A DNA stretch of 64,000 nt from a virus (lineage: Duplodnaviria; Heunggongvirae; Uroviricota; Caudoviricetes), in the IMG/VR virus record IMGVR_UViG_2855308460_000004; one strand, 5' to 3'. The translations under genes were made by a program, and so were the position numbers. Below the pieces are notes generated by a model, which did no database searches, was not told the DNA's origin, and was given only the letters and a program-made list of their open reading frames with translations. Below, in pieces: positions 1-16,763 of this stretch; the stretch's first letter is position 1; each line of letters starts with the position of its first letter.

Positions 1-20
1 GTTTCCTCAGCTTTTTTGTA

Positions 21-123
21 TAAAAATAAATATTTATATTTTTTCAAAAAAAGGTTAACAAAATGAAAAAATCCATCATAATATATATGTAATAAAAAAA
101 TCACCAAAGCTGTCCATACATGT
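21..123 (+). repeat. Copy A of a ~100-bp conserved module (weaker similarity continues to ~300); second copy at 15996–16092. Contains a sigma-70-like promoter: TTAACA (55–60), 17-bp spacer, ATAATA (78–83)
   Basis: Near-identical direct repeat read in the sequence (…aaaaaaggttaacaaaatgaaaaaatccatcataatatatatgtaataaaaaa…aaagctgtccata…). Both copies lie ~400 bp upstream of a tRNA array. Confidence 0.6.
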
Positions 124-477
124 ATTGTCTCTCCCATGTCATTCTTGACTCGTGATTGTAGCCTAGCAATCATTAAAGGGCAAGATAAAGCTTCCTTCTT
201 CTATATTAAGAAATTAATTTGGTATGGCCTCGGCCATATATGATGGTAGGTATTAGCTCATGTGCTTACAGCTAACTAAAAAAACAGAAAGGATAAACGA
301 CCATGTTAAAGAAAATAACTGTTATGAATCATATTAATGTACCGGCAGTAGCTATGCATAATGATATTATGGATAGATTTTTTGGCATGGATAATTTAAG
401 GATTCGTTTAGTCCGAAGAAAGACCAGTTATATGTGAATTAGTGACTTGATTAGATAGTTATTAATTAACACATATT

Positions 478-506
478 GGAGTCGCTTCGGCGGCTCCATT
501 TTTATT
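478..506 (+). terminator. Intrinsic terminator/attenuator hairpin (ggagtcgc-ttcg-gcggctcc + T-run) just upstream of tRNA array 1
   Basis: GC stem, tetraloop and T tract. Confidence 0.5.
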
Positions 507-538
507 TTACACAAAATAGTTCAATAAGAAAGTTGTAT

Positions 539-610
539 TCCTTGGTAGCTCAATGGTAGAGCGTCCGGCTGTTAACCGGGATGTTGCAGGTTCGAGTCCT
601 GTCCTTGGAG
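539..610 (+). tRNA. tRNA-Asn (GTT); acceptor stem has two U·U mismatches (pairs 4–69 and 5–68)
   Basis: Cloverleaf read manually: D-stem gctc/gagc, anticodon loop ctGTTaa, T-arm gcagg-ttcgagt-cctgt. Confidence 0.55.
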
Positions 611-615
611 CTTAT

Positions 616-689
616 GGCTTAGTAGCTTAGAGGCTTAAAGCGCTGCCCTGTCACGGCAGAGATCGTGGGTTCGAATCCCATCTAAGTCG
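616..689 (+). tRNA. tRNA-Asp (GTC)
   Basis: Acceptor ggcttag/ctaagtc, anticodon loop ctGTCac, T-loop ttcgaat. Confidence 0.75.
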
Positions 690-710
690 TTTGTTTCAAA
701 TAATTGTTAC

Positions 711-784
711 TGGTTGATAGCTCAGTTGGTTAGAGCAACCGCCTGTTAAGCGGTGGGTCGTGGGTTCAAGTCCCACTCTTCCAG
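711..784 (+). tRNA. tRNA-Asn (GTT), second copy; same U·U mismatches at acceptor positions 4 and 5
   Basis: Anticodon arm accgc-ctGTTaa-gcggt, T-arm gtggg-ttcaagt-cccac. Confidence 0.55.
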
Positions 785-788
785 CTAT

Positions 789-860
789 ATCTCCATAGTT
801 CAATGGAAGAGCATTACGTTGACATCGTAAAGGTTGTTGGTTCGACTCCAACTGGAGATA
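789..860 (+). tRNA. tRNA-Val (GAC)
   Basis: Perfect acceptor atctcca/tggagat, anticodon loop ttGACat. Confidence 0.8.
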
Positions 861-864
861 TTTT

Positions 865-941
865 GGGATGATAGCTTACTTGCGGTCCGCAGCACTGGTC
901 TGAAAAACCAGAGGGTGATGGTTCGACTCCATCTCATCTCA
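865..941 (+). tRNA. tRNA-Phe (GAA) with an enlarged 12-nt D-loop (77 nt)
   Basis: Anticodon arm ctggt-ctGAAaa-accag, T-arm gatgg-ttcgact-ccatc. Confidence 0.55.
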
Positions 942-945
942 TTTT

Positions 946-1018
946 GGCTTATTAGATTAATTGGTTAAATCACATGCCTGTCACGCATGAGACATGGGTT
1001 CGAATCCCATATAGGTCG
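946..1018 (+). tRNA. tRNA-Asp (GTC), second copy
   Basis: Anticodon arm catgc-ctGTCac-gcatg, T-loop ttcgaat. Confidence 0.75.
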
Positions 1019-1024
1019 TTTTAT

Positions 1025-1097
<73 letters not shown>

Positions 1098-1101
1098 CTT
1101 T

Positions 1102-1173
1102 GCTGGATTAGTTCAGTGGTAGAGCACTGGTCTGATATACCAGGAGTCGTTGGTTCAAATCCAACATCCAGCA
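1102..1173 (+). tRNA. tRNA-Ile (GAT)
   Basis: Perfect acceptor gctggat/atccagc, anticodon loop ctGATat. Confidence 0.8.
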
Positions 1174-1177
1174 TTAC

Positions 1178-1249
1178 ATCCGCATAGCTCAATGGATAGA
1201 GCATCGTTCTTCTAAATCGACGACAAGAGTTCGATTCTCTTTGCGGATA
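1178..1249 (+). tRNA. tRNA-Arg (TCT)
   Basis: Perfect acceptor atccgca/tgcggat, anticodon loop ctTCTaa. Confidence 0.75.
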
Positions 1250-1254
1250 TTTTT

Positions 1255-1328
1255 CGGAGTGTGCAGCTAAATGGTAGGCAGCTTCCCTTGGAAGGAAGAA
1301 CGTGTGAGTTCGAATCTCACTGCTCCGA
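1255..1328 (+). tRNA. tRNA-Pro (TGG); D-arm pairing poor
   Basis: Anticodon arm cttcc-ctTGGaa-ggaag, T-arm gtgag-ttcgaat-ctcac. Confidence 0.6.
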
Positions 1329-1330
1329 CT

Positions 1331-1417
1331 AATCCAGTAGTATAATGGAAGTCGATTTAATATATAAGTACGCTGGCTTGTCCGTCAGTAGTGCCGGTTC
1401 GATTCCGGCCTGGATTG
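1331..1417 (+). tRNA. tRNA-like 87-nt element; no canonical anticodon arm could be folded (atypical tRNA or pseudo-tRNA)
   Basis: Perfect acceptor aatccag/ctggatt and canonical T-arm gccgg-ttcgatt-ccggc; the interior is AT-rich with no 5-bp/7-nt anticodon hairpin. Confidence 0.35.
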
Positions 1418-1421
1418 TTTT

Positions 1422-1495
1422 GGGATCATAGCTCTAAATGGGAGAGCATTTGCCTTGCAAGCAAAGGGTTGAGGGTTCAAATCCCTCTGGTTCCA
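1422..1495 (+). tRNA. tRNA-Ala (TGC)
   Basis: Anticodon arm tttgc-ctTGCaa-gcaaa, T-arm gaggg-ttcaaat-ccctc. Confidence 0.8.
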
Positions 1496-1542
1496 TTTGA
1501 TGAAGTGGGAAAAGTATTATAATTCCGATTTCTATCAATTTA

Positions 1543-1615
1543 CGGGATGTAGCCTAGTTGGTAAGGCGCGTGATTTGGGATCACGAAATCGCAGGTTCAA
1601 GTCCTGTCATTCCGA
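1543..1615 (+). tRNA. tRNA-Pro (TGG), second copy
   Basis: D-stem gcct/aggc, anticodon arm cgtga-ttTGGga-tcacg. Confidence 0.75.
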
Positions 1616-1666
1616 TTTAATTCCATATCATTACCATAGTCTCAGTGATATGGATTATATTAATAT

Positions 1667-1738
1667 GCCCGCTTAACTCAATGGGAGAGTGCTTCCCTTA
1701 CAAGGAAGATGTTACAGGTTCAAGTCCTGCAGCGGGTA
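1667..1738 (+). tRNA. tRNA-Val (TAC)
   Basis: Perfect acceptor gcccgct/agcgggt, anticodon loop ctTACaa. Confidence 0.8.
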
Positions 1739-1740
1739 TT

Positions 1741-1841
1741 ACGCTAATGCCTATGGCAGCTAATGAGCTGGGAGTAAACGAACCTCTGTGCAAGTACTGG
1801 CAGTCAGAAGGCTAGGAAAAGATAAGTGAAACCATTAGCGT
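1741..1841 (+). ncRNA. Structured non-tRNA insert in the array, closed by a 9-bp stem (acgctaatg…cattagcgt); unclassified
   Basis: Long-range inverted repeat plus internal hairpins (cagc-taatga-gctg). No T-loop consensus and no ORF. Confidence 0.3.
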
Positions 1842-1972
1842 ACATAAGCTCCGTGTAAAACACACCAAATAAACATAAGTCTATATAGCGCTGTCGACTA
1901 CGAAGTAGGTGTGTACACGTTAAGATGGTAATATGTAGCAATCCGGGTTCTTTTCGGAGCTTTCCCGGTTAT

Positions 1973-2046
1973 AGTGGATTAGCTCAGTTGGTTAGAGCGT
2001 TGGTCTGATAAGCCAAAGGCCACCGGTTCAAGTCTGGTATCCACTA
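1973..2046 (+). tRNA. tRNA-Ile (GAT), second copy
   Basis: Perfect acceptor agtggat/atccact, anticodon arm ttggt-ctGATaa-gccaa. Confidence 0.8.
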
Positions 2047-2048
2047 TT

Positions 2049-2215
2049 CTGGATTATTAATTTAAATTGCCCAAAACAAATTTAACGGCAGTGGTGGGCG
2101 AAGAGAAGTCGGTATCCCTCACTGCCATGAGGCCAACCACGTGTCTACATAGGATGCAGTCGCACTTCTGTAATATACCGAGCGTGGATTGAAACAAGTT
2201 GGTTTATTAATCCAG
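2049..2215 (+). ncRNA. ~167-nt structured element inside the tRNA array; closing stem ctggatta…taatccag, internal hairpin ggcagtg…cactgcc (2087–2126); unclassified
   Basis: Nested inverted repeats read in the sequence; no tRNA cloverleaf and no plausible ORF. Confidence 0.3.
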
Positions 2216-2345
2216 AAAATTAATATGTTCCTATGCGAAATAATAATATGGAGTCATGACCATAGGATTATATTCATCACTTTTTCATGTGCAAAAAGTA
2301 GAGAGCGATTTGCGAGAACTGGTGCAAGGCCAGACACGAACCCAT

Positions 2346-2416
2346 GCAGATGTAGTTTAACGGAAAAACGCTGTTTTGCCATAGCAGAGTTGAGGGTTCG
2401 ATTCCCTTCATTTGCT
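2346..2416 (+). tRNA. tRNA-Gly (GCC)
   Basis: D-stem gttt/aaac, anticodon arm ctgtt-ttGCCat-agcag, T-arm gaggg-ttcgatt-ccctt. Confidence 0.75.
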
Positions 2417-2421
2417 TCAAA

Positions 2422-2442
2422 CATCCGGCTCATAACCGGATC
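2422..2442 (+). pseudogene. Isolated anticodon-arm-like hairpin (tccgg-ctCATaa-ccgga); possible tRNA-Met remnant
   Basis: 5-bp stem with a 7-nt loop carrying CAT; no D- or T-arm nearby. Confidence 0.3.
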
Positions 2443-2459
2443 TAAAATGTTTTTCTTAT

Positions 2460-2533
2460 ATCAGTATAGCTCAGCAGGCAAGAGCACCAGACTCATACCC
2501 TGGAGGCCGCTGGTTCGATTCCAGCTACTGATA
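2460..2533 (+). tRNA. tRNA-Met/Ile2 (CAT)
   Basis: Perfect acceptor atcagta/tactgat, anticodon loop ctCATac. Confidence 0.7.
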
Positions 2534-2534
2534 T

Positions 2535-2606
2535 TACGGTGTAGTTCAACGGATAGAACATAGGTTTCCTAGACCTACAATATGGGTTCGATTCCCATCA
2601 TCGTAA
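2535..2606 (+). tRNA. tRNA-Arg (CCT)
   Basis: Anticodon arm taggt-ttCCTag-accta. Confidence 0.75.
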
Positions 2607-2608
2607 CT

Positions 2609-2682
2609 GTGGCCGTGGCTCAATTGGTACAGCAGCGGATTGTGGCTCCGCCATTTTGCGGGTTCAACTCCCGTCGGTCACC
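2609..2682 (+). tRNA. tRNA-His (GTG)
   Basis: Anticodon arm gcgga-ttGTGgc-tccgc, acceptor gtggccg/cggtcac. Confidence 0.7.
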
Positions 2683-2692
2683 TTTATTGAAG

Positions 2693-2718
2693 ACCAGTCT
2701 GTAATGGACTGGTTTTTG
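2693..2718 (+). terminator. Intrinsic terminator closing tRNA array 1
   Basis: accagtc-tgtaatg-gactggt + TTTTT. Confidence 0.65.
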
Positions 2719-2734
2719 CATATCTATAAGTTGG

Positions 2735-3016
2735 ATGGAGTATTATAAAGGAATTACGGAGAAGGATAAACCAATTAATGGAGGATCTTTTGTTACTAAA
2801 ACAGGAATGGCAAATGAAGACCTTAATTTCTGTCCGATTGAAATGGAGGATGGGAATGAATATTGTTTTGGCTTTGTTGAAACCAAAAGTACAAATAGAA
2901 AAGATAAAAATCAATTACATATAGAGAATATAGATGGATGCAGACATTTAGTAGATGCGGATTCTGTAGATGATGTGTTGGTTATAGTCTGTGCATTAGC
3001 ATCTTTTAGACAATAG
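2735..3016 (+). CDS. Hypothetical protein (93 aa)
   Basis: ORF only. Confidence 0.3.
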   Translation: MEYYKGITEKDKPINGGSFVTKTGMANEDLNFCPIEMEDGNEYCFGFVETKSTNRKDKNQLHIENIDGCRHLVDADSVDDVLVIVCALASFRQ

Positions 3017-3125
3017 ACGAAGAATCCTCGTGACTTAAGTCATGAGATGAATTCGTTATGTATTAATTATAGATATTTGGTTGACAACATCATCTTTTTC
3101 ATCATCATATATATGGAGGTGAAAT

Positions 3126-4370
3126 ATGCTATTATCAAAAAGAACAACGATCCACGTATCTGAACACCAAGCAAATATTTTGAACCATATGAATTATGCA
3201 GCCAGTAAGTTATGGAATGTATGCAATTATGAGAAACGAAATTATAAGACTTTGGGCATTCCATATCCAAATTGGTACAATCAGAAATCAAGGCTAAAGG
3301 ATAATATCTGGTTTAAGTCGCTTCCATCCCAAACAGCTCAGGAAATCTGCAACCAGATTGATCAGGCTTTTAAAAGCTACTATAAGCTATTAAAAACAGG
3401 TGGAATCAAGTCTCCAAAACCACCTAAATTCAAGCAGGAAGGGATTCCAATTACTTATATGCAGAATGGGATTGTACATAATAAGAAATCTGCACAGATC
3501 CGGCTAAGTATTCCAAAGAATTTAAAGGTACATATGGCAGAACGGTTTGATGTCCATGATAACTATCTATTCCTGGAAAATAAAGTTTTCCAGGACATGG
3601 AAAACATCAAACAGATCAAGCTATATCCACCTGTAAATGGAGAACTACTGATGATTGTTATCTATGAGATTCCAGAGGTTGGCTGGCTTCCAGATAATAG
3701 CCATTATCTGTCCATTGACTTAGGAATCGAGAACCTGATGACCTGCTATGATAGTTTGGGTAACAGTTTTATTGTTGGAAATAGCTACTTGGAAGTTTCG
3801 CATTACTTTAACAAAAAAATTGCACACTATCAGTCCATATCAGACAGTCAGCAAGTGTCAAAAGGAACTAAGTATCCAAAATCTTCCAAACGCGTTCTGA
3901 AGCTCTATAAAAAGAAGCACAACAGTATTAAAGATGTCCTCCACAAATCAACAAAATATATTGTTGATTATTGTTTGGAACATCATATCTATACAGTAAT
4001 TATCGGTGATATAAAACATATCAGGGACAACAATAGTTTGGGTTCTAAAACAAATCAGGTGTTTCATGCCTGGCCATTTCGTGAAATATATTTGATGTTG
4101 GAATATAAATTAAAGCAGCATGGAATTCGCTTAACAAGGATAAAAGAATCCTATTCCAGTCAATGTAGTCCATTATCAAAAGAAGTTAGTAAACGATATG
4201 CAAATAAGTCGAATCGAATAAAAAGAGGCTTATATAAAGAAGCCGGACATATATGGAATACCGATGCGGTAGGCGCTTATAATATCATGAGACTATACTT
4301 TAAACAGATAGGTCGAGGCAAACAGATTTCTCATCAAAACCTAGGAAGTCCGATAAAAGTAACTGTGTAA
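3126..4370 (+). CDS. tnpB: IS605/IS1341-family TnpB-like (OrfB) protein, 414 aa; RuvC-II Glu and zinc finger look degenerate
   Basis: TnpB hallmarks are visible: RuvC-I SIDLGIENL and RuvC-III NTDAVGAYNI. Where the RuvC-II motif (IxEDL) is expected the sequence reads VIIGDIKH. The C-terminal CxxC…CxxC is reduced to a single Cys. Confidence 0.7.
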   Translation: MLLSKRTTIHVSEHQANILNHMNYAASKLWNVCNYEKRNYKTLGIPYPNWYNQKSRLKDNIWFKSLPSQTAQEICNQIDQAFKSYYKLLKTGGIKSPKPPKFKQEGIPITYMQNGIVHNKKSAQIRLSIPKNLKVHMAERFDVHDNYLFLENKVFQDMENIKQIKLYPPVNGELLMIVIYEIPEVGWLPDNSHYLSIDLGIENLMTCYDSLGNSFIVGNSYLEVSHYFNKKIAHYQSISDSQQVSKGTKYPKSSKRVLKLYKKKHNSIKDVLHKSTKYIVDYCLEHHIYTVIIGDIKHIRDNNSLGSKTNQVFHAWPFREIYLMLEYKLKQHGIRLTRIKESYSSQCSPLSKEVSKRYANKSNRIKRGLYKEAGHIWNTDAVGAYNIMRLYFKQIGRGKQISHQNLGSPIKVTV

Positions 4371-4810
4371 CGAAAGTAGCAGTATTGCTGGCATGAACCC
4401 AGTCTAAGGTAACTGTACCTGCAGTGGCTTAGAAGCTTATGACTTTAGTCACGAGTAGTTCACACGATAATGATTCTAGAGTCTACAATATTTTGGCACG
4501 GTGTAATGATGTGGTATTACTTCCTCATTCTACACGTGTGTCGAATAGGCCATTATGGATGGCACCTAGAAATAAAGGCCAACATTTTGGTTTTGGACAA
4601 TCTGAGGTATGGTACGCAACGGATGATAAAGCGTGCAAGTACGCATATCTTAATAGGATTGTTAATCAAATCCAGAATTATAATGGAGATAATTGGTTAT
4701 ATAAATAAGATATCACAATAATATAAAAAATAATCCTTATATTTTTCAATCTTATTATAATCTCTCATATTAATTGTAATTGGAAATTCGGATAATGAAG
4801 GAGCCAAAAC

Positions 4811-5521
4811 ATGAGATATAGAGGAAGTAAAATAATGAGATTTCGTGAAGGGATTTGTATTAATTGCAAACATGAATTGCAAATAGATACAAATAAAATA
4901 ACATCAACATGTCCTTTTTGTGGTATGTCCTATGATGTAATAAAAACAATCGACGGAAAGAATCAATTATTAGAAGAAAAAAAATATGATGAGTTAAATG
5001 AACTATGTACAGTCATTTTAAAAGGGATTTTTGCTACAATCATAGCCATAATAATCGGAAGCTACATGGTTATGGCCTTATCTCCTAAACAGGATGATAA
5101 TAGTACAGAAAAGCCAACAAATATTGTTGAGTCAACCATATCTGAAAACATAGCAGGAAAAGTAGATATTGGTGATAAAGAGAAGAAGGAAATGGATGTA
5201 GTTGAACCAATAGATGGTAAGCACATAGAAAAATCCAAGAAGCTAGATACTACGGAATCACAACAGTCTGCTGATGTTTTTGAATCAGGAGAAAAAACTA
5301 CAATCTCAAATATAGCTGATAATGAAATGATGTTATTATTAGGCAGAATTCTCTCAATGTTAAAATTTATTGCATTCTTTAATTTAGGATTTGGATTGAT
5401 TCGGCTTATAATTGGAATCGTAAATGAAGATATAGAAGGTGTATCAGGAGCAAGTCTCTTTTTGATACTAAATGCATTTATGTTGCTATGCGTATCAGTT
5501 ATAACACCATTTATAACATAA
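4811..5521 (+). CDS. Hypothetical membrane protein with an N-terminal zinc-ribbon (CINC…CPFC) and a C-terminal TM region
   Basis: Good RBS, Cys pairs, hydrophobic C-terminus. Confidence 0.5.
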   Translation: MRYRGSKIMRFREGICINCKHELQIDTNKITSTCPFCGMSYDVIKTIDGKNQLLEEKKYDELNELCTVILKGIFATIIAIIIGSYMVMALSPKQDDNSTEKPTNIVESTISENIAGKVDIGDKEKKEMDVVEPIDGKHIEKSKKLDTTESQQSADVFESGEKTTISNIADNEMMLLLGRILSMLKFIAFFNLGFGLIRLIIGIVNEDIEGVSGASLFLILNAFMLLCVSVITPFIT

Positions 5522-5602
5522 AAGAGGCAAATGCCTCTTTTTATTATATATGAAATTGAGTTCAACTATCAGAATTTTCCATACTATGAATAATATCTTA
5601 TA

Positions 5603-5782
5603 TTATGTACATTGACCATATAATCCAATGCGGTGACCTATTTTATCACACCAACAAGTTTCAGCTATCATTTCGATCACATCTTCTTCAAAGCCTGGAT
5701 GATCCTCCATTTCAGCGTACCCAAACCGATTCATATAAAGTTCCAATTCGTCTTTGATATAAGGACAATTGATACATTCCAT
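5603..5782 (-). CDS. Small Cys-rich protein (59 aa; CINC…CWC…C)
   Basis: Minus-strand ORF with RBS aaagggag; more coherent than the overlapping + ORF 5633..5827. Confidence 0.4.
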   Translation of the reverse strand: MECINCPYIKDELELYMNRFGYAEMEDHPGFEEDVIEMIAETCWCDKIGHRIGLYGQCT

Positions 5783-5918
5783 AATTCATCTCCCTTTCAA
5801 AATTCTTATATTATTAATATGCATTAAAAATATCAAAAAAAACAATAATACTCTTATTTCAAACATAAAAATCCAATCATACTATATGTGATAAAAGAAA
5901 AGAAGGAGAGAAATATAT

Positions 5919-6440
5919 ATGAAATACTATAGTATAAGCGAAATAAAAAATGAGCTATGTAATCATTCAATTACAAGTGATAAGACGGTTTTTAAAAATA
6001 GTATAAAATCCATTAAGGAACAAAGAAAAAGATTTTACTCAATACTTGTACAGTTAGAAGAAGCGTTAGAAAATCGCTTTAAACAAAAAAGTTTCACATA
6101 TAATAGGTTTGATGGGATGATAGCAGAAGTTTCGGAGAACCTAATCAACAATTATGCTTATATTAAAAAAATTATGGATACTTTTGACGATAATGAATAT
6201 AAAAGATTACAAGCATTTCATTTATCTATTCCAAAGGAACTCCAGTATCAAAAATTGGAAATGTATGAGGACATAATTGATAAAATCAGAGATTGCATAA
6301 CCAAAAATGAGAAATTGATTATTCAAATTGAAGGCATCATTCCTGAAATAATCGAACTGAACGATAGAACTGAAGAAATGTCAGAGTCAAGCAAAAAAAT
6401 AGAAGAACTAGTGGAACAACTAAAATTTTATAAACAATAA
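5919..6440 (+). CDS. Hypothetical protein (173 aa, helical/coiled-coil)
   Basis: ORF with RBS aaggagag. Confidence 0.5.
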   Translation: MKYYSISEIKNELCNHSITSDKTVFKNSIKSIKEQRKRFYSILVQLEEALENRFKQKSFTYNRFDGMIAEVSENLINNYAYIKKIMDTFDDNEYKRLQAFHLSIPKELQYQKLEMYEDIIDKIRDCITKNEKLIIQIEGIIPEIIELNDRTEEMSESSKKIEELVEQLKFYKQ

Positions 6441-6524
6441 AATATTTTTACATACTAGTAACAACAACTGAAGTCAGGATATAATATTGTGATTTTAGTT
6501 AATAAAGGAAAGGGAGAACATGAA

Positions 6525-7706: not shown

Positions 7707-7726
7707 TACGATAATTCATAATTTAA

Positions 7727-7748
7727 AAAGGCATTCATGCCTTTTTAT
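7727..7748 (+). terminator. Intrinsic terminator
   Basis: aggcat-tc-atgcct + T-run. Confidence 0.6.
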
Positions 7749-7813
7749 TTTTATAAATAAAATCACAACATACTATAAATGAACTATTACATAAAAGGTA
7801 TAAGGAGATCGTA

Positions 7814-9121: not shown

Positions 9122-9230
9122 AATAGCTAGAAAAATCAAAGATAAACCTTAGTGGTTTATCTTTTTTGTAATTTTTGTTTTTCGAAACCAACTTACATAC
9201 TTTAATTATATTAATGTGTGGAGGTGAAGT

Positions 9231-9872
9231 ATGGCTGAACAAGTGAGAATGGTATTTCAACCTATTTTTGATAAAACAATGCAGGTGTTTGCATACGAGG
9301 GATTAATGAGATTTACAGATACAACGATTGTAAAAGTAATAAGTGAGTGCAGGTCATATTCCGACTTTTACGAAATAGAAAAACTGACATTTTTTAAAGC
9401 TTTACAGGAATATCAAAAACGTAACTATAAAGAAAAACTTTTTATTAACTCGTTCCCTCATGTCCATCTAAGCAAAGCTGATCTGTCTGAAATAATTTCT
9501 CATCACAAGGATACATTAAAAAAAGTAGTAATAGAAATACTTGAATATCCAGATTTAGACCAAGCATCAGTCAAGCAAAAAAAAGATGATGTTAGAAATT
9601 ACGAAGTATTATTTGCAATTGATGATTATGGAGTAAATACATTTGAAAATCTGAAATCAATTGCTCCGGCTTATCTAAAGATTGACAGAAGTATTATTTC
9701 TGGGATACATGAGGACAAAGAAAAACAAAATCAGTTGGATAGTATTCTAGAAATTGCAGATAAATATTCATGTCTTACAATTGCCGAAGGAATAGAAACA
9801 GATAATGAGTTATCTTATTTAAAAAATAAGGTTAATTATTTTCAGGGTTTTCTTTTAGGAAAACCAAATTAA
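9231..9872 (+). CDS. Stand-alone EAL-domain protein (c-di-GMP phosphodiesterase-like), 213 aa
   Basis: YEGLMR (EAL motif), DDYGVN (DDFGTG), LKIDRS, AEGIET, FQGFLLGKP. Confidence 0.7.
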   Translation: MAEQVRMVFQPIFDKTMQVFAYEGLMRFTDTTIVKVISECRSYSDFYEIEKLTFFKALQEYQKRNYKEKLFINSFPHVHLSKADLSEIISHHKDTLKKVVIEILEYPDLDQASVKQKKDDVRNYEVLFAIDDYGVNTFENLKSIAPAYLKIDRSIISGIHEDKEKQNQLDSILEIADKYSCLTIAEGIETDNELSYLKNKVNYFQGFLLGKPN

Positions 9873-9951
9873 AAAGGCCATCAGGCCTTTTATTTATTAA
9901 TAATTATAGACATTATATTACAGAATAAATAAAGATAAAGGAGAAAATATT

Positions 9952-10707
9952 ATGTCAGTTGTACTCAATACAAAAAAAGAATTGTTTTTAGGGAAAAGAC
10001 CTTTTAAGTCAAGAAAGATGGATAAAGATGAATTTGCTAGTCTGGCAAAAGAACTGTATGACAAAATAAAAAATCAGTATAAAGATGAATATGAAGACTA
10101 TTTTGAAGAGGATAACAATACTACAGATTCTCAATTATGGGCTATCGATATATTTGTCAACGAATATGATGGAGATGAATTACCAGAGGAACTGAAATTA
10201 TACTATGAGGACTTAAGCGAAGTTATTGGTGCTGGAATGACCATAATGAACTGGGAAGATGAGCCAGGCCAGTTTAGTATTCAGACATTGGATAATGGAT
10301 TCACTTATATGAAAGTATATTCTTCTGTTGGAGATGATGCGTTTAGACCAATGTGTAACATTATCTACTTTAATCAGGATAACAAATTGCGATTGTATGT
10401 CCCATATTGTGGAAACTTAGTATTTGTTGGAGCGGATACACAAATGTGTGTATATGGCGGATATGGAGAAGAAGAACGTGAAATCAAGAAATTATTTGAC
10501 GAAGCAAAAAGTTCTAATGGACCAGCTGAATTAAATATCATGGGAAAAGTTTTTATGTGCTATTATAAGGATGAAACCTTCTATAAGTTATATGGACAGA
10601 AATATGGTATGAATTGTTCAGATGAAGATTTTAATTCTGACGAAGATTTTATTTTTGATGAAGAACTTATGCTTGAAGACATTAAATCAAATGTCATTTT
10701 AGAATAA
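9952..10707 (+). CDS. Hypothetical acidic protein (251 aa)
   Basis: ORF with RBS; D/E-rich. Confidence 0.5.
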   Translation: MSVVLNTKKELFLGKRPFKSRKMDKDEFASLAKELYDKIKNQYKDEYEDYFEEDNNTTDSQLWAIDIFVNEYDGDELPEELKLYYEDLSEVIGAGMTIMNWEDEPGQFSIQTLDNGFTYMKVYSSVGDDAFRPMCNIIYFNQDNKLRLYVPYCGNLVFVGADTQMCVYGGYGEEEREIKKLFDEAKSSNGPAELNIMGKVFMCYYKDETFYKLYGQKYGMNCSDEDFNSDEDFIFDEELMLEDIKSNVILE

Positions 10708-10791
10708 AAGGCTGAAAAGCCTTTTTTTAACTTAGCATTTTTACTCAATCATGTCATACTAACTATAAGAAAAGAGAAAGGTGATTAAAAT

Positions 10792-12114
10792 ATGTTTGTA
10801 TTAATGAAAAATAAAGGGACAAGAAATAAAATATTATTGATTTTAGGATTCATAATATTTGTTCGTATTGGAAGTATTATTCCAATACCTGGGATTAATA
10901 GTGAATATATGAAATCAATCATATCAGGATCCGGATTTCAGTTCTTTAATATGATTACAGGTAACTCTTTTTCCAAGATGTCTCTATTTGCACTAAGTAT
11001 AAGTCCATATATCACAGCGTCAATCATCATCCAATTAATGACTGTAATAATTCCTAAATTAGAAGATTTAAGTAAGGATGGAAAAACAGGACTAGAAAAG
11101 ATTCAAAAAATAACAAATGTTACTGGAATTATAATAGGTTTCATCCAATCTTTTTTCATGGCAGTCAGTTTGGGATCAAAAGGTCTTCTTAATCCATATA
11201 CATGGTGGATGGTTTTGATTGCAACCTGCATCTGGACATTAGGAGCTACTATTTTAATCATAATGGGTGAGAAGATAACGAAACTGGACCTTGGAAATGG
11301 AATATCCTTTATATTATTATTCAATATCCTATCTACATTCCCTGGTGATCTAATGGTTGTCTATGAACGGTTTTCATATGATAGTAAACCAGTTGCAATT
11401 GCTTTAAAACTTTTTTTGGCAATAGCCGTATTCATGGTTTTCCTGGCTGGATGTATCTATTTGAATTTATCTGAAAAAAGAATACAGATAAGATTTTCTA
11501 GAAAGAGCATAAATAATGAGCAAGGAAAAGATTTGCCAATATCATTGAATATCTGTAATGTGATGCCAGTCATTTTTACTGGAAGTATTATAAGCATGGT
11601 TAACATTGCAGCAACTTTCAGCTCCAATCAAATACTATTAACAATTTCAAAATACTTATCACCCAATAATTGGTTTATAATAGGTAGTCTAAAATATACA
11701 TTAGGTTGCATTGTATATATACTGCTTGCCTATTTCTTTGCAAATTTTTATTTAGACATAGCATTTAATGCCACTGAAATTGCACAAAGATTGAAAGCTC
11801 AAGGTGCTACCATTCCAGGAATTAGGCCAGGAAAACCAACATCAGAATTTTTACATACAAATGCGTTTGAAATGATGGTACTAGGGACTGGTTTGATGTT
11901 GTGCATTGTTCTGGGAGCATCTTTGGTGTGTAATATCTTTGGAATAGGTGTTTTGAGTATTGGCGGTACATCTATCCTAATCTGCGTTAATGTAATCATA
12001 GAAACATACAAAAAAATTAAAACAGCTGCCCAAAGTGTAAGGGTTCAGAGTTACTATAAGAAAAAGAATAGCAGAAAGTCATTATTCCAGATGAAAGGAG
12101 TCTATAATGTTTAA
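10792..12114 (+). CDS. secY: SecY preprotein translocase subunit homolog (440 aa), outside any ribosomal-protein operon
   Basis: FVRIGSIIPIPGIN; FALSISPYITASIIIQLMTVI; GKTGLEKIQKITN; GNGISFIL; GIRPGKPTSEFL; GGTSILI — these match SecY signatures across all regions. Confidence 0.85.
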   Translation: MFVLMKNKGTRNKILLILGFIIFVRIGSIIPIPGINSEYMKSIISGSGFQFFNMITGNSFSKMSLFALSISPYITASIIIQLMTVIIPKLEDLSKDGKTGLEKIQKITNVTGIIIGFIQSFFMAVSLGSKGLLNPYTWWMVLIATCIWTLGATILIIMGEKITKLDLGNGISFILLFNILSTFPGDLMVVYERFSYDSKPVAIALKLFLAIAVFMVFLAGCIYLNLSEKRIQIRFSRKSINNEQGKDLPISLNICNVMPVIFTGSIISMVNIAATFSSNQILLTISKYLSPNNWFIIGSLKYTLGCIVYILLAYFFANFYLDIAFNATEIAQRLKAQGATIPGIRPGKPTSEFLHTNAFEMMVLGTGLMLCIVLGASLVCNIFGIGVLSIGGTSILICVNVIIETYKKIKTAAQSVRVQSYYKKKNSRKSLFQMKGVYNV

Positions 12115-12256
12115 TCGCATTCACCAAATGTATATACCAGATAAGATTAAAGTAATTAAAACAATGGTAATGGTAAGCTTGTCTATTTTAATATTGTCAA
12201 GCTTTGTATTTAGTATTGACACACTTATTGCAGGAATATATCAGATGATAATATAA
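12107..12256 (+). CDS. Possible small membrane protein (49 aa) overlapping the secY stop
   Basis: ATG overlaps the secY stop; hydrophobic. Confidence 0.25.
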   Translation: MFNRIHQMYIPDKIKVIKTMVMVSLSILILSSFVFSIDTLIAGIYQMII

Positions 12257-12262
12257 AATAAA

Positions 12263-12283
12263 AAGAAGGCGCAAGCCTTCTTT
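12263..12283. terminator. Bidirectional terminator between secY (+) and clpP (−)
   Basis: gaaggc-gcaa-gccttc flanked by A and T runs. Confidence 0.6.
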
Positions 12284-12878
12284 ATTTTGTTGATACGATT
12301 GTATCTACAATACCATATGCCAATGCTTCATCAGCAGTCAGATAGTTGTCTCTTTCTGTATCTTCACATACCGTGACATAGGGCTTCCCGGTATTCTCAG
12401 ATAAAATTCTGTTTAAACGTTCTTTGGTTTTTTTAATATGGTCAGCGACAATCAGGATTTCGGTTGCCTGGCCTTTTGCACCTCCACTTGGCTGATGAAT
12501 CATTACCTCCGCATTCGGCATAATCATACGTTTGCCTTTTGTACCACCAGCAAGCAGGAATGCTCCCATGCTAGCAGCCATTCCCATACAGATTGTGGAA
12601 ACATCACTTTTGATATATTTCATTGTGTCATAAATAGCCATCCCTGCAGTTACAGACCCACCCGGACTGTTAATGTATAAATAAATATCTTTACCAGGAT
12701 CAACAGAATCCAAAAATAGAAGCTGAGAAGTGATAGAGGCGGCCATTTCATCACAAACTTCTCCAGTTAACATGATGATTCTGTCATTAAGTAATCTTGA
12801 AAAAATATCATATGATCTTTCTCCAGTAGCTGTTCTTTCTATTACATATGGCATTGTAGTCATATTCGTATATCCCAT
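12282..12878 (-). CDS. clpP: ATP-dependent Clp protease proteolytic subunit ClpP
   Basis: Ser-His-Asp motifs [31 protein letters not shown]; bacterial-type length. Confidence 0.9.
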
Positions 12879-13101
12879 AATTATATCTCCTTTTATTCTA
12901 TAAATTTTACATGTTTATAATGTTAAAAAAAAGGACCATATAACTACTAAATTGTATTCTGTGCGTATTACGGTTTGTGACCATCGATAATTTCGAATTA
13001 TATCGGAAGTTAAAATGACATTATATATGCATCAACAGAAATAGATGGAGCATATTTAATGTTTTTATATTTCTGTATTAAAACAAAAGGAGAATTTCAA
13101 T

Positions 13102-13620
13102 ATGAAACTTACTATTATTGGAAAAACTGTTACAATTACGGATGGTATGAGGGAGGCTATTACCGAAAAGCTTTCTAAATGTGATAAATATTTAAAGGAA
13201 AACACGCCGGTAAGAGTAGTTGTCCGAACTGTAAGAGATGACCAAATCATTGAGGTAGCCATTCCAACTGGAAAGAATAAGGAAATCCGAGCAGAACGCA
13301 GAAGTAAGGATCTTTATGAAGCAATTGATTTGGTAGAAGAAGTTCTCAACAGACAGCTTAGGAAACAGAAAGAAAAGAAATTAGATAAGAAACGTATACC
13401 GGTTATGTTTTTAGAAACAGAGCCAGAAGCAGAAATCAAACCGCTTATTATGAAAGAAAAACAGTTTGATTTACAGATGATGACTCCTGAAGAGGCGGTT
13501 GAGGAACTGGAGGCTTTAGACCATGACTTTCATTTATTTATGAATGTGATGGATGGTAGGGTAGGTGTCGTATATAGAAGGAAAGAGGCTGGATACGGGC
13601 TGCTTGCAGCAAATATGTAA
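13102..13620 (+). CDS. hpf: Ribosome hibernation promoting factor (long HPF/RaiA family)
   Basis: MKLTIIGK…ITDGMREAI; N-terminal RaiA fold plus a C-terminal dimerisation domain; 172 aa. Confidence 0.75.
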   Translation: MKLTIIGKTVTITDGMREAITEKLSKCDKYLKENTPVRVVVRTVRDDQIIEVAIPTGKNKEIRAERRSKDLYEAIDLVEEVLNRQLRKQKEKKLDKKRIPVMFLETEPEAEIKPLIMKEKQFDLQMMTPEEAVEELEALDHDFHLFMNVMDGRVGVVYRRKEAGYGLLAANM

Positions 13621-13645
13621 GAGAGGGAAACCTCTCTTTTTGTTT
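13621..13645 (+). terminator. Intrinsic terminator
   Basis: gagagg-gaaa-cctctc + T-run. Confidence 0.6.
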
Positions 13646-13697
13646 TGAGGAATTATCATACATATTATCTCAAAGATGAAAAAATGGAGATAAAATT

Positions 13698-14111
13698 ATG
13701 ATGATAGAGAAATATTTTGAGATGACAAAGAGAGTGGCCATGAACTCTGAATTCAACAGAGTCCATGTTGGATGTATTGCCATTTATAAAGGCAGAATGA
13801 TAGGTTCAGGTTTCAATTCAGAGAAGACACATCCAATGCAGTATCACTATAACCGATATCGGCAGAATGATAATGTGATATCAGCTAATCTGTTGCCAAA
13901 GATTCATGCTGAAATCATGTGCATCAGTAGCATAAAAAACCAGGATATTGATTTTAAAAAGGTTAAGCTATTTATCTATAGAATTAGAAATGACCAGCCT
14001 TTTGGTATTGCAAGGCCATGCGCGGCATGCATGAATGCAATAAAAGATTTAGGAATCAAAAATATATACTATACAACTGATGTGGGTTATGCACATGAAT
14101 ACTTGGCCTGA
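13698..14111 (+). CDS. dCMP/cytidine deaminase-family zinc enzyme (137 aa)
   Basis: HAE…PCAAC zinc-binding signature. Confidence 0.65.
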   Translation: MMIEKYFEMTKRVAMNSEFNRVHVGCIAIYKGRMIGSGFNSEKTHPMQYHYNRYRQNDNVISANLLPKIHAEIMCISSIKNQDIDFKKVKLFIYRIRNDQPFGIARPCAACMNAIKDLGIKNIYYTTDVGYAHEYLA

Positions 14112-14147
14112 ATTATCTTAATAACAAAAAAGAGGCATCTGCCTCTT

Positions 14148-14789
14148 TTATTTTGACTCAAAATACGATTTCAATTTCTCGTTATGATGAAGTAAAGTAA
14201 TCAGTGTTTTATCATTGCCTTTTAACACGGTTTCAACCATATCATACGGAAGAAACTGTAACGCGCACATGGTTTTTTTAATATGATAATCCATATCAAA
14301 ATATGTGCGGATATAATATTCCTGCAGATTTGGAATCTCTCCTATAAACGGCTGACAATCAGGATCTGACATGATTTCTTTTCGTATATCCATTGGACAT
14401 AAAGGATGTATCATGATTTGAGTCCGAACAGCATAATCATCGGGTAATAAAGAATTATTATATACAAGCCTCAGAAAATCACAGGTACAGTCTTTCTTAT
14501 TCTCCACTATTTTATACTTTAAATAAGTCGTTGCTGTTTTTAGGACTTGCTTAATGAGTTCTGGTGGACAGTTTGGAGCGGTTGCAATCGCTAATTGTAT
14601 TTTTTCATTATTGCTATCGACATATGACCACAACTCATGAATGGAAATCTTCCCTAAGGTACAATCTTCATAGAAGGTATCAGAAACAGTTTCTATTTCT
14701 TTAATAAAGCCATATTTCCTTAATCTGTTTTTTATTTTATTAAGGAAAAAATATATATGCAACCTGTATTTTAATCTGCTTAACTTCAT
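14148..14789 (-). CDS. Hypothetical protein (213 aa)
   Basis: ORF flanked by terminators. Confidence 0.5.
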   Translation of the reverse strand: MKLSRLKYRLHIYFFLNKIKNRLRKYGFIKEIETVSDTFYEDCTLGKISIHELWSYVDSNNEKIQLAIATAPNCPPELIKQVLKTATTYLKYKIVENKKDCTCDFLRLVYNNSLLPDDYAVRTQIMIHPLCPMDIRKEIMSDPDCQPFIGEIPNLQEYYIRTYFDMDYHIKKTMCALQFLPYDMVETVLKGNDKTLITLLHHNEKLKSYFESK

Positions 14790-14901
14790 GTTTTCCTCCT
14801 GTTATCTTTGATACTAATAGTATGAAATGAAATGATGTAATATAATTATCAACTTAGATTTATTGACATTATACTACTATAAACAGATGAAAGGAGTAAA
14901 T

Positions 14902-15504
14902 ATGCATAAAGTTATAAATTTAGATGAAACCTTTTATCGGATTTCTAGGAACCAGATAAAGAACCTGCATGGAAAAAGAGAATTTTTACATAGCATCTTG
15001 GTCGATTATACAAGATGGTTTGGAAATATAACAGACGCAACGAGAACTTACCCAGAATGGCAGATTACAGGTAATGATATGGTCAGGAAATATACAAATG
15101 GATACAAGGCTATATACACATTAAAGGATGTTGAATATTTTGATGGGTATGGAAGACGGATTAATCCCAGAGATTATTTACCAGAGGCAATGAGAACCGT
15201 GAAGCTGCAGAATATATATAATCCGACATATTATATCCGAGGAAGAAGGATATCACATCACTATAGATACCGGATGGATCCCGTCCCTTACACCGGGAAG
15301 ATAAAGGGCGGATGTTCAGGAACAAAGAAATTTAGAGGGCTTAAGCGTATTTATCAACAAGCTTCAGACCCTGAATATGGAAAATATATAAGAAAGAAAG
15401 CTTTGCCAGTGGGACCACACTTAACATGGGACTGTGAAGCTTATGAAGAAACAAGGTTACATGAATCTTGGAAAAAACAAAAGAAGCGCAAACAATGGAT
15501 GTAA
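14902..15504 (+). CDS. Hypothetical protein (~200 aa; start at the ATG after RBS aaaggag)
   Basis: ORF with RBS. Confidence 0.5.
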   Translation: MHKVINLDETFYRISRNQIKNLHGKREFLHSILVDYTRWFGNITDATRTYPEWQITGNDMVRKYTNGYKAIYTLKDVEYFDGYGRRINPRDYLPEAMRTVKLQNIYNPTYYIRGRRISHHYRYRMDPVPYTGKIKGGCSGTKKFRGLKRIYQQASDPEYGKYIRKKALPVGPHLTWDCEAYEETRLHESWKKQKKRKQWM

Positions 15505-15526
15505 TTGAGATGAGGAAAGGATTAGT

Positions 15527-15949
15527 ATGGATAGAGAAAAATTAATAGAATATAACGAAATATTAAAGAGACGGGCATTAACGAATACCGAGTGGGATGA
15601 AATAAAAGAGATTATTGAAAGAAACCGGAATAACCAAAGCTTTATATTAGAGGAACTTTGCCCTCTTGTTGCAGTAAGATTCAATGGAGGTCAAAGTTCC
15701 TATGAACTTTTCCTTAAAATAATGTGTAAAGTATTAAATGATGACCCAAAACATATCTTGATTGGGAATGGAATAATTGCAAGAGTTGAAAAGAATGAAC
15801 TTGGAGATGGCGGTGGAGCATATATTGCTTTTGTAATGGGAGACGTTATAATCGGAGCAATGAGTGCCATAGAGGAGTATACAGAATTTATCAATGATAG
15901 ATTGGTATTTAATGAAATTAGAGATCAGATTCTTAGACATTTTTTATAA
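15527..15949 (+). CDS. Hypothetical protein (140 aa)
   Basis: ORF with RBS aggaaagga. Confidence 0.5.
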   Translation: MDREKLIEYNEILKRRALTNTEWDEIKEIIERNRNNQSFILEELCPLVAVRFNGGQSSYELFLKIMCKVLNDDPKHILIGNGIIARVEKNELGDGGGAYIAFVMGDVIIGAMSAIEEYTEFINDRLVFNEIRDQILRHFL

Positions 15950-15970
15950 AAGGCATTCATTGCCTTTTTA
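15949..15970 (+). terminator. Intrinsic terminator
   Basis: aggca-ttcat-tgcct + T-run. Confidence 0.55.
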
Positions 15971-15995
15971 ATTTACCAGGCTGATGGCTTTCTAA

Positions 15996-16092
15996 TAATA
16001 AAAATAAATTTTTTTTTAAAAAAGGTTAACAAAATAGAAAAATCAATCATAATATATATGTAATAAAAAATTACTAAAGCTGTCCATATGTG
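15996..16092 (+). repeat. Copy B of the conserved upstream module with the same promoter (TTAACA 16026–16031, 17-bp spacer, ATAATA 16049–16054)
   Basis: About 90% identical to 21–123. Confidence 0.6.
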
Positions 16093-16458
16093 AGTATCTA
16101 AATAATGGTCATTGAGCATAGATATATCTTATAGAAGAAGTGATTCTTCCATAAGAAAATCGATTGCTGACTACACACCAATAGCCACCATTAAAAAGAT
16201 GCGTTACTTCCTTCATAATAATAAAAAATAACATTATCCAAAGGTGAAATAATAGTACACATGCTTACAGTTAAAAAGAAGAAAGGAGATTAATGAAATG
16301 AGATATCGTTGTCAGTTATTGCAGGTTTGTTTAGAACAATGTACTACTCTTAAAAAACAGGAGTGGTTAGTTTTGAATGCAAAAATTGAATGATGATATC
16401 GAAGTATTATTAATCCATAAAACTATTTATGTATAGATTTCGTGCTATACACAATTAT

Positions 16459-16486
16459 GGGATTACTTCGGTAGTCCCATTTTTAT
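16459..16486 (+). terminator. Terminator/attenuator hairpin immediately upstream of tRNA array 2
   Basis: gggattac-ttcg-gtagtccc + TTTTT. Confidence 0.55.
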
Positions 16487-16488
16487 TT

Positions 16489-16570
16489 GCTCGCATGGCG
16501 GAACAGGAAGACGCATGGGACTTAAAATCCCAGGAAGAAATTCGTGAGGGTTCGATTCCCTCTGTGAGTA
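16489..16570 (+). tRNA. tRNA-Leu (TAA), class II
   Basis: Anticodon arm tggga-ctTAAaa-tccca, long variable arm, T-arm gaggg-ttcgatt-ccctc. Confidence 0.7.
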
Positions 16571-16575
16571 CTGAT

Positions 16576-16647: not shown

Positions 16648-16651
16648 TTAT

Positions 16652-16736: not shown

Positions 16737-16763
16737 TTATATAACTACCAAAGTTATAATCCT

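Follow-up and report, generated by a model that had tools for sequence, protein, structure and literature searches.

Introduction

Long arrays of tRNA genes (L-arrays, or tRNA array units) are defined, in the available portion of the source, by at least 20 tRNA genes at a density of at least two per kilobase (kb) (PMC4758250). How individual tRNA genes are regulated in bacteria is largely unknown. In Anabaena PCC 7120, the trn operon, a long tRNA array, is silent until translation stress, is then co-induced with rtcB, and has been proposed to be controlled by repressor-binding repeats at its -10 element and transcription start (PMC8421152). That study presents its promoter repeats as the first indications of tRNA gene regulation and never uses the words leader, attenuation or terminator (PMC8421152). 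In Firmicutes, drug-responsive attenuators built on a leader open reading frame (ORF) are described, in the available portions of the reports, for bmrCD/bmrB, vmlR and msrD/mefE (PMC4191407, PMC9226507, PMC4335068). Here, we analyzed a 64,000-nucleotide (nt) stretch of DNA, hereafter the window, from the virus record IMGVR_UViG_2855308460_000004, in which two tRNA arrays, A and B, are each preceded by a copy of the same leader cassette.

Each cassette carries a predicted promoter, a short ORF and a terminator, and each ORF is composed mostly of codons that its own array decodes. We propose, tentatively and with the balance tipped slightly against us, that in gut Lachnospiraceae a large foreign element monitors the supply of its own tRNAs, each array being switched on when ribosomes slow down on a codon-matched leader ORF. 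Full-text searches returned no paper on leader-peptide control of tRNA arrays; tRNA genes as a target and, as a sensor, an ORF of mixed codons reflecting an entire array both appear to be new.

Results

Related leader cassettes precede both tRNA arrays

Both copies of the cassette have the same order: A-tract and promoter, structured leader, ribosome-binding site, short ORF, hairpin, strong intrinsic terminator and first tRNA. The features of the two loci, in window coordinates, are the following.

1 to 18, plus strand: 3' half of the terminator hairpin of the upstream gene; the full hairpin is AAAGCTGAGTTTCCTCAGCTTTTTT in the relative L008, which extends upstream.
44 to 83, plus strand: predicted promoter A, with A-tract, -35 element TTAACA (55-60) and -10 element CATAAT (77-82) or ATAATA (78-83); motif and consensus scans.
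89 to 302, plus strand: 5' leader A, with 5' hairpin (89-104), long-range helix (106-122 with 259-275) and ribosome-binding site GAAAGGA (287-293).
303 to 437, plus strand: leader ORF A, 44 amino acids, MLKKITVMNHINVPAVAMHNDIMDRFFGMDNLRIRLVRRKTSYM; 30 of 43 codons read by array-A tRNAs.
477 to 507, plus strand: intrinsic terminator (putative attenuator) A, UGGAGUCGC-UUCG-GCGGCUCCA followed by U5AUUUU; consensus scan, and compensatory changes relative to copy B and to relatives.
539 to 2682, plus strand: tRNA array A, 19 genes, for Asn, Asp, Val, Phe, Ile, Arg(UCU, CCU), Pro, Ala, Gly, Met and His; ARAGORN and Rfam.
2693 to 2718, plus strand: terminator-like hairpin and T-run closing array A, ACCAGTC-TGTAATG-GACTGGT followed by TTTTG; read from the sequence, unlisted by the consensus scan.
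15948 to 15969, plus strand: terminator of the upstream gene before cassette B; family D16.
16016 to 16054, plus strand: predicted promoter B, with A-tract, -35 element TTAACA (16026-16031) and -10 element CATAAT (16048-16053); motif and consensus scans.
16060 to 16297, plus strand: 5' leader B, with 5' hairpin, 5' box (16076-16092) pairing with 3' box (16258-16274) and ribosome-binding site AAAGGAG (16282-16288).
16298 to 16393, plus strand: leader ORF B, 31 amino acids, MRYRCQLLQVCLEQCTTLKKQEWLVLNAKIE; 21 of 30 codons read by array-B tRNAs.
16457 to 16488, plus strand: intrinsic terminator (putative attenuator) B, AUGGGAUUAC-UUCG-GUAGUCCCAU followed by U5AUUU; consensus scan, and a G-C to A-U compensation in the relative L026.
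16489 to 19077, plus strand: tRNA array B, 19 genes, for Leu (six genes), Trp, Gln, Glu, Lys, Cys, Thr(CGU) and Arg(UCG, ACG); ARAGORN/Rfam.
19083 to 19104, plus strand: terminator closing array B; consensus scan.

The original prediction held that about 100 base pairs of near-identical, promoter-bearing sequence recur in front of the two arrays, and the alignment bears this out: positions 30-123 and 16001-16092 are identical at 79 of 94 positions (z = 12 against shuffles). The window has exactly two occurrences of a 41-nt core, GGTTAACAAAATNNAAAAATCNATCATAATATATATGTAAT, where chance would give none. Low-complexity A/T runs as the sole source of similarity, the outcome that would have undone the claim, are ruled out by this pairwise alignment and core count, and the repeat is therefore not low-complexity sequence. 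The hexamers TTAACA and ATAATA, 17 nt apart, lie at 55-83 and 16026-16054 as had been read, and the consensus promoter scan gave TTAACA, 16 nt and CATAAT, a score of 10/12 in both copies, with an A-tract upstream and a spacing that, at 16-18 nt between hexamers, suits a predicted promoter of the sigma-70/SigA type. The weaker similarity said to continue downstream is present over about 390 nt (63% identical, z = 3.7) and is confined to islands. The first is a box, CA..TGCTTACAG(C/T)TAA, at 259-275 and 16258-16274, directly before the ribosome-binding site; the other two are the ribosome-binding site itself and a GC-rich, UUCG-looped hairpin followed by a T-run; compensatory changes distinguish its stem in one copy (GGAGUCGC/GCGGCUCC) from that in the other (GGGAUUAC/GUAGUCCC). 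The surroundings of both modules are also as predicted: an upstream terminator, complete at 15948-15969 and, for the copy at 1-18 cut by the window edge, whole in L008, then a short ORF (303-437 and 16298-16393), a T-run hairpin (477-498 and 16457-16480) and the array (539-2682 and 16489-19077). The hairpin at 1-18 is predicted to insulate cassette A from upstream transcription.

Diverged cassettes were recovered through neighbouring proteins and one motif scan. The relatives comprise close variants (L002-L004, L007, L009-L015) and the diverged lineages L005 (cassette B only), L017 (A only), L024 and L026 (both), and every related element recovered has the promoter, ribosome-binding site, ORF, terminator and array. 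The promoter core is unvarying in the close relatives, and the -35 and -10 elements are retained in the diverged ones. The exact-motif scan of metagenomes returned seven real loci and one chance match (L016), with the core in front of both arrays in several independent contigs; the same scan of the virus collection gave no match, and neither did two scans of the GTDB representative genomes for the promoter motifs. Within one element, the A and B promoters have in common a lineage-specific spacer and first transcribed bases, which differ between elements. Sequence comparison gave three such concerted pairs.

Window: 44-100 and 16016-16070.
L024: about 1790-1860 and about 12020-12095.
L026: about 975-1045 and about 12050-12120.

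Such concerted evolution would reflect either gene conversion or a common DNA-binding factor. About 11 nt past the first -10 element, there is a second -10-like hexamer (TGTAAT or TAGAAT). The window also holds a third promoter-like site (24860-24960), with ATGACA, a 17-nt A-rich spacer ending in CATC, and ATAATA, which is 81% identical to 58-88; it stands after a terminator and before an RNase H-like gene, downstream of rtcB, and may belong to the same promoter class.

Each leader ORF is composed mostly of codons decoded by its own array

To the codons of the two leader ORFs we assigned the arrays that read them by standard wobble rules. ORF A comprises 30 array-A, 8 array-B and 5 other codons, and ORF B 6, 21 and 3, respectively (Fisher p = 1e-5). 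Measured against the codon usage of the window, own-array codons are enriched in both (p = 8e-4 for ORF A, 3e-5 for ORF B). The enrichment is specific to the reading frame: it stands out against dinucleotide-preserving shuffles (p = 0.0026 for A, 0.0003 for B), and the other five frames show no own-array enrichment, except for one antisense frame of the ORF A region (22 A-set and 7 B-set codons). Among 280 short ATG-initiated ORFs of the window, three, ORF A itself included, match the array-A fraction of ORF A, and ORF B alone attains its array-B fraction. Real genes provide the same picture: 0.1% of 986 windows drawn from them attain the value of ORF A and 0% that of ORF B. The match is concentrated centrally, in 24 of 26 consecutive codons in ORF A and 18 of 21 in ORF B, and ORF A samples all 14 distinct array-A anticodons (simulation p = 0.005). 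Thus, each leader ORF is composed mostly of codons that its own array decodes.

The two peptides have unrelated sequences despite their paralogous cassettes. A ribosome-binding site lies 9 nt before the ATG in both window copies, and 8-10 nt before it in all eight leaders. ORF B has exactly 31 codons in all four diverged lineages, whereas the flanking non-coding DNA has undergone insertions and deletions, and the homologues of ORF A encode 42-49 amino acids in L017, L024, L026 and P0090. Pooled over lineages, own-set and other-set codons number 114 and 31 in the A-type ORFs, and 75 and 25 in the B-type ORFs; these counts are not independent, because the ORFs are homologous, and the composition bias is present in every lineage in peptides that differ substantially. 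At the variable positions in the centre of peptide B, the residues are K, E, Q, C and R(CGU); exchanges among these are chemically radical but do not leave the array-B set. In L026, array A has no tRNA-Gly by ARAGORN and Rfam, and its ORF A has no Gly codon. The ratio of non-synonymous to synonymous differences (pN/pS) of ORF B is 0.4-0.95, which argues for weak selection on the exact peptide B, with frame and length being kept. This ratio, the placement of the ribosome-binding sites and the constant length of ORF B are indications of translation of the leader ORFs. A search of 1.8 billion representative proteins with peptide A returned only two clusters, and the family is thus rare.

A conserved terminator separates each leader ORF from its array

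We infer that transcription starts at the G of GUAAU, near G89 for cassette A and G16060 for cassette B. Both leaders are more stably folded than shuffled sequences (z = -4.9 for A, -5.8 for B). In each, the 5' and 3' boxes, which are conserved between copies A and B, form a long-range helix that encloses a variable structured domain, and an inner hairpin of leader B shows compensatory changes in L007. We considered this 5' domain as a possible sensor and rejected the idea: L017 lacks the domain and L026 has a very short one, so that it is dispensable. Rfam, applied to the window at the gathering threshold and to L013 including its leader at E<=1, identified tRNAs only, with no T-box, riboswitch or antitermination RNA.

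The terminator hairpins and their U-run are kept in all eight leaders, with compensatory changes. The gap between terminator and first tRNA is 31 nt for array A, 0-2 nt for array B, and 2-40 nt overall. In both copies, the consensus scan found no promoter-like site in this gap, so at least the first tRNA block would be transcribed solely by read-through of the terminator. In some close relatives, about 210 nt are inserted after the attenuator terminator, ahead of the first tRNA-Leu (L013 3736-3947, L007 about 1237-1449, L011 and L014). With z = -2.4, this insert is moderately structured; Rfam gave no match for it, and it has just one weak promoter-like site.

Predicted pairings link the start codon, the end of the ORF and the terminator

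Consensus structures were computed with RNAalifold on six A-type and six B-type leaders, and the antiterminator with RNAduplex. The elements of interest are the following.

301 to 390, plus strand: predicted start-covering helix A, in which 301-311 (the AUG region) pairs with 380-390 (codons 26-30); RNAalifold.
16302 to 16400, plus strand: predicted start-covering helix B, in which codons 2-9 (16302-16323) pair with the last codons, the stop codon and the following bases (16378-16400); RNAalifold columns 30-51/106-128.
16410 to 16466, plus strand: candidate antiterminator B, in which UUAAUCCAUAAA (16410-16421) pairs with AUUAUGGGAUUAC (16454-16466), the 5' half of the terminator stem; RNAduplex, -7.0 kcal/mol.

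Helix A comprises 11 pairs, unbroken in all six A-type leaders, with one-sided changes only (columns 24-34/106-116). One of its strands is the segment that codes for the conserved DRFFGMD motif of peptide A, which would account for the conservation of the motif. In helix B, 2 of 21 pairs show compensatory changes, and an outer extension pairs 16288-16296, from the ribosome-binding site to the start codon, with 16407-16415. RNAalifold also supports the terminator, through compensatory pairs, and an apical hairpin inside ORF B.

From these models we infer an antiterminator pairing. In all four B lineages, an equivalent duplex lies 15 to 20 nt past the stop codon (+15 to +20) and ranks first or second among the duplexes, with energies of -5 to -7 kcal/mol; one of its pairs is compensated when the window is compared with L005. 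The candidate antiterminator has six bases, 16410-16415, in common with the outer part of the start-covering helix, and the B-type leaders would therefore follow the classic 1:2, 2:3, 3:4 attenuator logic. The candidates in A-type leaders are of different kinds: in L026, a segment inside ORF A, AAACAGUCUC, imitates the 3' terminator arm, with a predicted duplex of -9.5 kcal/mol with the 5' arm; L017 has a pairing of -7.4 kcal/mol; and in the window, GUGACUU past the stop codon reaches -9.1 kcal/mol. The A leader of L024 leaves just 16 nt between stop codon and terminator. A GAAG-loop pairing in folds cut off at the terminator loop was discarded as an artefact.

The two arrays divide the codon boxes between them

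ARAGORN called 18 of the genes of array A, and Rfam adds a tRNA at 865-941 that ARAGORN missed. Gene density is 7-9 per kb in each 19-gene array, the 38 genes together lying within 19 kb. The arrays have no anticodon in common. Two-fold boxes are split, array A reading the pyrimidine-ending codons (Asn, Asp, His, Phe) and array B the purine-ending codons of the same boxes (Lys, Glu, Gln, Leu-UUR); Arg is split as well, with AGR codons in array A and CGN in array B. This division of amino acids is retained in the four diverged lineages. The suggestion that the arrays themselves arose by duplication was thus not borne out, given the disjoint anticodon sets and the split kept in diverged relatives, and the paralogy appears to be limited to the leader cassette of about 0.45 kb.

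Several tRNAs are unusual. The tRNA-Ile(UAU) at 1330-1418 is 89 nt long, tRNA-Gln(UUG) (87 nt, 16651-16737) and tRNA-Lys(UUU) (82 nt, 16985-17066) have long extra regions, and a tRNA of L024 (12653-12732) has the anticodon UUA, which would read the stop codon UAA. Array B contains an ORF (17413-17832) encoding 135-139 amino acids, rich in hydrophobic residues and without a Pfam match; the identical and near-identical loci L001-L003 have it as a gene call. A TnpB (OrfB_IS605 / Cas12f-like) gene lies just after array A (3126-4370), and L024 has two HEARO RNAs (6140-6366 and 14229-14487) beside HNH/RRXRR (IscB-like) genes, one of them directly downstream of array B. Guide-RNA transposon nucleases are thus repeated neighbours of these tRNA arrays.

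The window resembles part of a large foreign element of Lachnospiraceae

Contig QSGP01000005.1 (472 kb) of assembly GCA_003467385.1, which is listed as Enterocloster aldenensis (PMC11760930), contains an identical copy of the window. The GC content of the window is about 33%, and the available part of one report gives 49% for a genome of the same genus (PMC13560712). The proteins encoded by the window include TnpB, TelA, LytR-family and EAL-domain proteins, a second SecY, ClpP and a ribosome hibernation factor (HPF), as well as a dCMP-deaminase-like protein, a DNA methylase, RtcB, a radical-SAM protein, a ParA-like ATPase and a RecD2-like helicase. The relatives lie on metagenome contigs of 45-440 kb (L017, L018, L020, L024 and L026 among the elements), which also encode SecA, SecE, a penicillin-binding protein, PTH2 and an AlaX-like protein. 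Enzymes of nicotinamide adenine dinucleotide (NAD) salvage are among the proteins encoded by the window and its relatives. One HPF homologue is labelled Lacrimispora amygdalina. PHROGs recognized no phage structural protein among 10 large ORFs. An origin from a known phage or plasmid was considered and rejected, since blastn and megablast against phage and plasmid collections matched tRNA fragments only. Taken together, these features look like those of a large, low-GC foreign element or island of Lachnospiraceae. RtcB, HPF and ClpP are encoded near the arrays in the window, and PTH2 and the AlaX-like protein in relatives.

Discussion

A model for ribosome-dependent control of tRNA arrays

The repeat with its promoter-like sites, the frame-kept ORFs with ribosome-binding sites, the compensated terminators, the start-covering helix and the codon match are all present at both arrays. 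Of the predicted co-regulation by a common promoter/attenuator cassette, the part that stands is the recurrence of promoter core, ribosome-binding site with ORF, and terminator in both copies and in every relative. The more specific proposal, the best supported of the readings considered here and one whose odds we regard as evenly poised, treats each array as a transcription unit of its own, which a strong housekeeping-type promoter drives and a leader-peptide, hence ribosome-dependent, attenuator gates. RNA polymerase would start near G89 or G16060 and transcribe a leader with a good ribosome-binding site and a short ORF, before meeting a strong terminator just ahead of the first tRNA. Since most codons of the ORF are ones that its own array decodes, the first ribosome could serve as a meter of how well these codons are read. 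If decoding is fast, the ribosome would finish and leave, the start region would pair with the 3' part of the ORF, the terminator would fold and the array would stay off. A ribosome slowed by shortage or cleavage of the array's tRNAs, or by general translation stress, would instead keep the start region occupied; the downstream partner strand, thus freed, would pair with the 5' half of the terminator stem, and polymerase would read through into the array. Each array would thus have its own feedback control over tRNA supply. Which way the regulation runs and what signal is sensed are our reading of the sequence. The gene neighbourhood, with RtcB, HPF and ClpP in the window and PTH2 and the AlaX-like protein in relatives, is consistent with a signal of translation stress, as is the co-induction of rtcB in Anabaena.

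Several observations weigh against this proposal. No single antiterminator fold common to all A-type leaders, or to all leaders, was found, and the distance from stop codon to terminator varies from 16 to 67 nt in the A-type leaders. In equilibrium folding with simulated ribosome footprints, the terminator probability exceeded 0.96 at nearly all positions, with a single drop to 0.62, and refined footprint folding revealed no consistent switch in A-type leaders. The E. coli trp terminator is also more stable than its antiterminator, so a switch that depends on the order of folding is compatible with the equilibrium result. The correspondence between single anticodons and ORF codons is loose: ORF B samples 11 of 16 array-B anticodons, which is not significant (p = 0.06), its conserved Thr-Thr is encoded by ACU codons, which tRNA-Thr(CGU) should not read, and ORF A of L017 has three Ala codons in an element whose array has no tRNA-Ala. 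We therefore abandoned strict tracking of each anticodon across lineages, for which the evidence is mixed: Gly agrees, and Ala, ATA and CTY codons do not. Conserved segments occur in both peptides, DRFFGMD in A and QEWLV in B; for DRFFGMD, RNA pairing may be the cause, and each of the peptides may alternatively be functional in its own right. The residues L, K, E and Q of the array-B set are typical of helical peptides, and a small protein could be rich in them for other reasons. Finally, transcription often outruns translation in Firmicutes, and leader-peptide attenuation is less common there for this reason.

Alternative explanations

Control could act in trans, through a repressor or activator at the common promoter or through a protein or processive antiterminator that overrides the terminator, the ORF being incidental or secondary. 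We consider this unlikely, although several promoter features speak for it. The core, including the spacer and first transcribed bases, is unvarying in the window copies and L005; the lineage-specific spacer common to the A and B promoters of one element fits a common DNA-binding factor, or gene conversion; the second -10-like hexamer (TGTAAT, TAGAAT) follows about 11 nt past the first; and control by repeats overlapping the -10 element and transcription start is proposed for the Anabaena array (PMC8421152). However, the spacer is wholly different in L017, and yet ORF and terminator are kept there. As for an antiterminator, no known antitermination RNA family in Rfam matches the leader, and the 5' structured domain is absent as such from L017 and L026. 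Control in trans would also leave unexplained the frame-specific match between ORF and array and its persistence in diverged lineages, and it could coexist with an attenuator instead of replacing it.

To a similar degree, we doubt that the leader constitutes a gene in itself, encoding a small protein or small RNA and ending in its own terminator, the arrays being expressed by constant partial read-through and the match in composition being a coincidence. Such a coincidence might arise from the type of peptide, one being helical and rich in L, K, E and Q, the other rich in I, V, N, D and H. The conserved motifs and the fixed or nearly fixed lengths of both peptides across lineages are in line with a gene product, the 5' hairpin and 3' terminator hairpin are those expected of a stable RNA, and folding always favours the terminator. 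Against this, the peptides are unrelated though their cassettes are paralogous, the codon match lies in the far empirical tail for both ORFs at once, and even chemically radical substitutions stay inside the amino-acid set of the array. The conservation of DRFFGMD, one strand of the start-covering helix, need not mean peptide function. Moreover, the promoterless arrays would have to rely on an unregulated leak through a strong terminator.

It is considerably less probable that the T-run hairpin has no regulatory role and merely stabilizes or marks the 5' leader fragment released by RNase P, or insulates the arrays. Lying 2-40 nt before the first tRNA, the hairpin would form the 3' end of the leader fragment after cleavage by RNase P. 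A GC-rich stem, a UUCG loop and an immediate run of five to six U residues are, however, those of a canonical intrinsic terminator, conserved with compensatory changes and the U-run in all eight leaders, and the ORF and its codon match would not be accounted for. Lastly, chance similarity of low-complexity intergenic DNA has a negligible probability: the region is A/T-rich, but the z-score of 12 and a 41-nt core with no expected occurrence, found before both arrays in several independent metagenome contigs, already exclude it.

Implications

If our proposal of ribosome-dependent attenuation is true, it would be the first case of leader-peptide attenuation controlling tRNA genes, and classical attenuation would gain a new kind of target. 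It would constitute a simple and direct feedback loop from decoding speed to tRNA synthesis, operating separately for each array, or an alarm against tRNA-cleaving toxins and defence systems. It would also account for the division of the tRNAs into two arrays with fixed amino-acid sets, and hint at a way in which large mobile elements and phages could silence costly tRNA arrays until there is a need for them. Since the assembly that carries the window bears the name of a described species, Enterocloster aldenensis, the idea is open to direct test.

Comparison with known systems

Like the cassettes described here, T-box riboswitches are terminator-containing leaders; they respond to tRNA status, as is proposed for the cassettes, and are common in Firmicutes. 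They control aminoacyl-tRNA synthetase and amino-acid genes, however, and need no ORF. We rejected a T-box identity, since there was no Rfam T-box match in the window (gathering threshold) or in L013 (E<=1), and reading the leaders revealed no T-box motif.

L-arrays such as the Anabaena trn operon are horizontally transferred, dense sets of extra tRNA genes on foreign DNA, with RNA-repair and translation genes such as rtcB as neighbours. The present arrays, dense, with similar neighbours, and probably on foreign DNA and extra to the tRNAs of the host, resemble them. Unlike in the trn operon, the tRNAs here are distributed over two 19-gene arrays, each with its own leader ORF and terminator.

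The drug-responsive attenuators of Gram-positive bacteria (bmrCD/bmrB, vmlR, msrD/mefE) are, as described in the available portions of the reports, similar in logic to the mechanism proposed here: a ribosome stalled on a leader ORF relieves a downstream terminator, and the output aids impaired translation. There, the stall is caused by a drug and the products are resistance proteins, whereas the ORFs studied here point to the supply of specific tRNAs, and the output would be the tRNAs themselves.

The leader-peptide attenuators of amino-acid operons (trp, his, leu, thr, ilv, pheA) have in common with our cassettes a promoter-proximal short ORF with its own ribosome-binding site, an enrichment of this ORF in codons related to the product, an intrinsic terminator before the regulated genes and, in the finished leader, a start region covered by pairing. 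Compared with them, the antiterminator is here only partly identifiable, and the host is a Firmicute carrying a probable foreign element. Of the features by which a leader-peptide attenuator is recognized, a leader ORF kept in frame, cognate codons and a terminator before the regulated genes are present; for a further one, an antiterminator that excludes the terminator according to the position of the ribosome, there are candidate pairings. But where the amino-acid operons have a run of one amino acid in front of genes for enzymes, the ORFs of the cassettes described here draw on 8-11 amino acids, a broad mixture reflecting their entire array, and the genes that follow are those of tRNAs.

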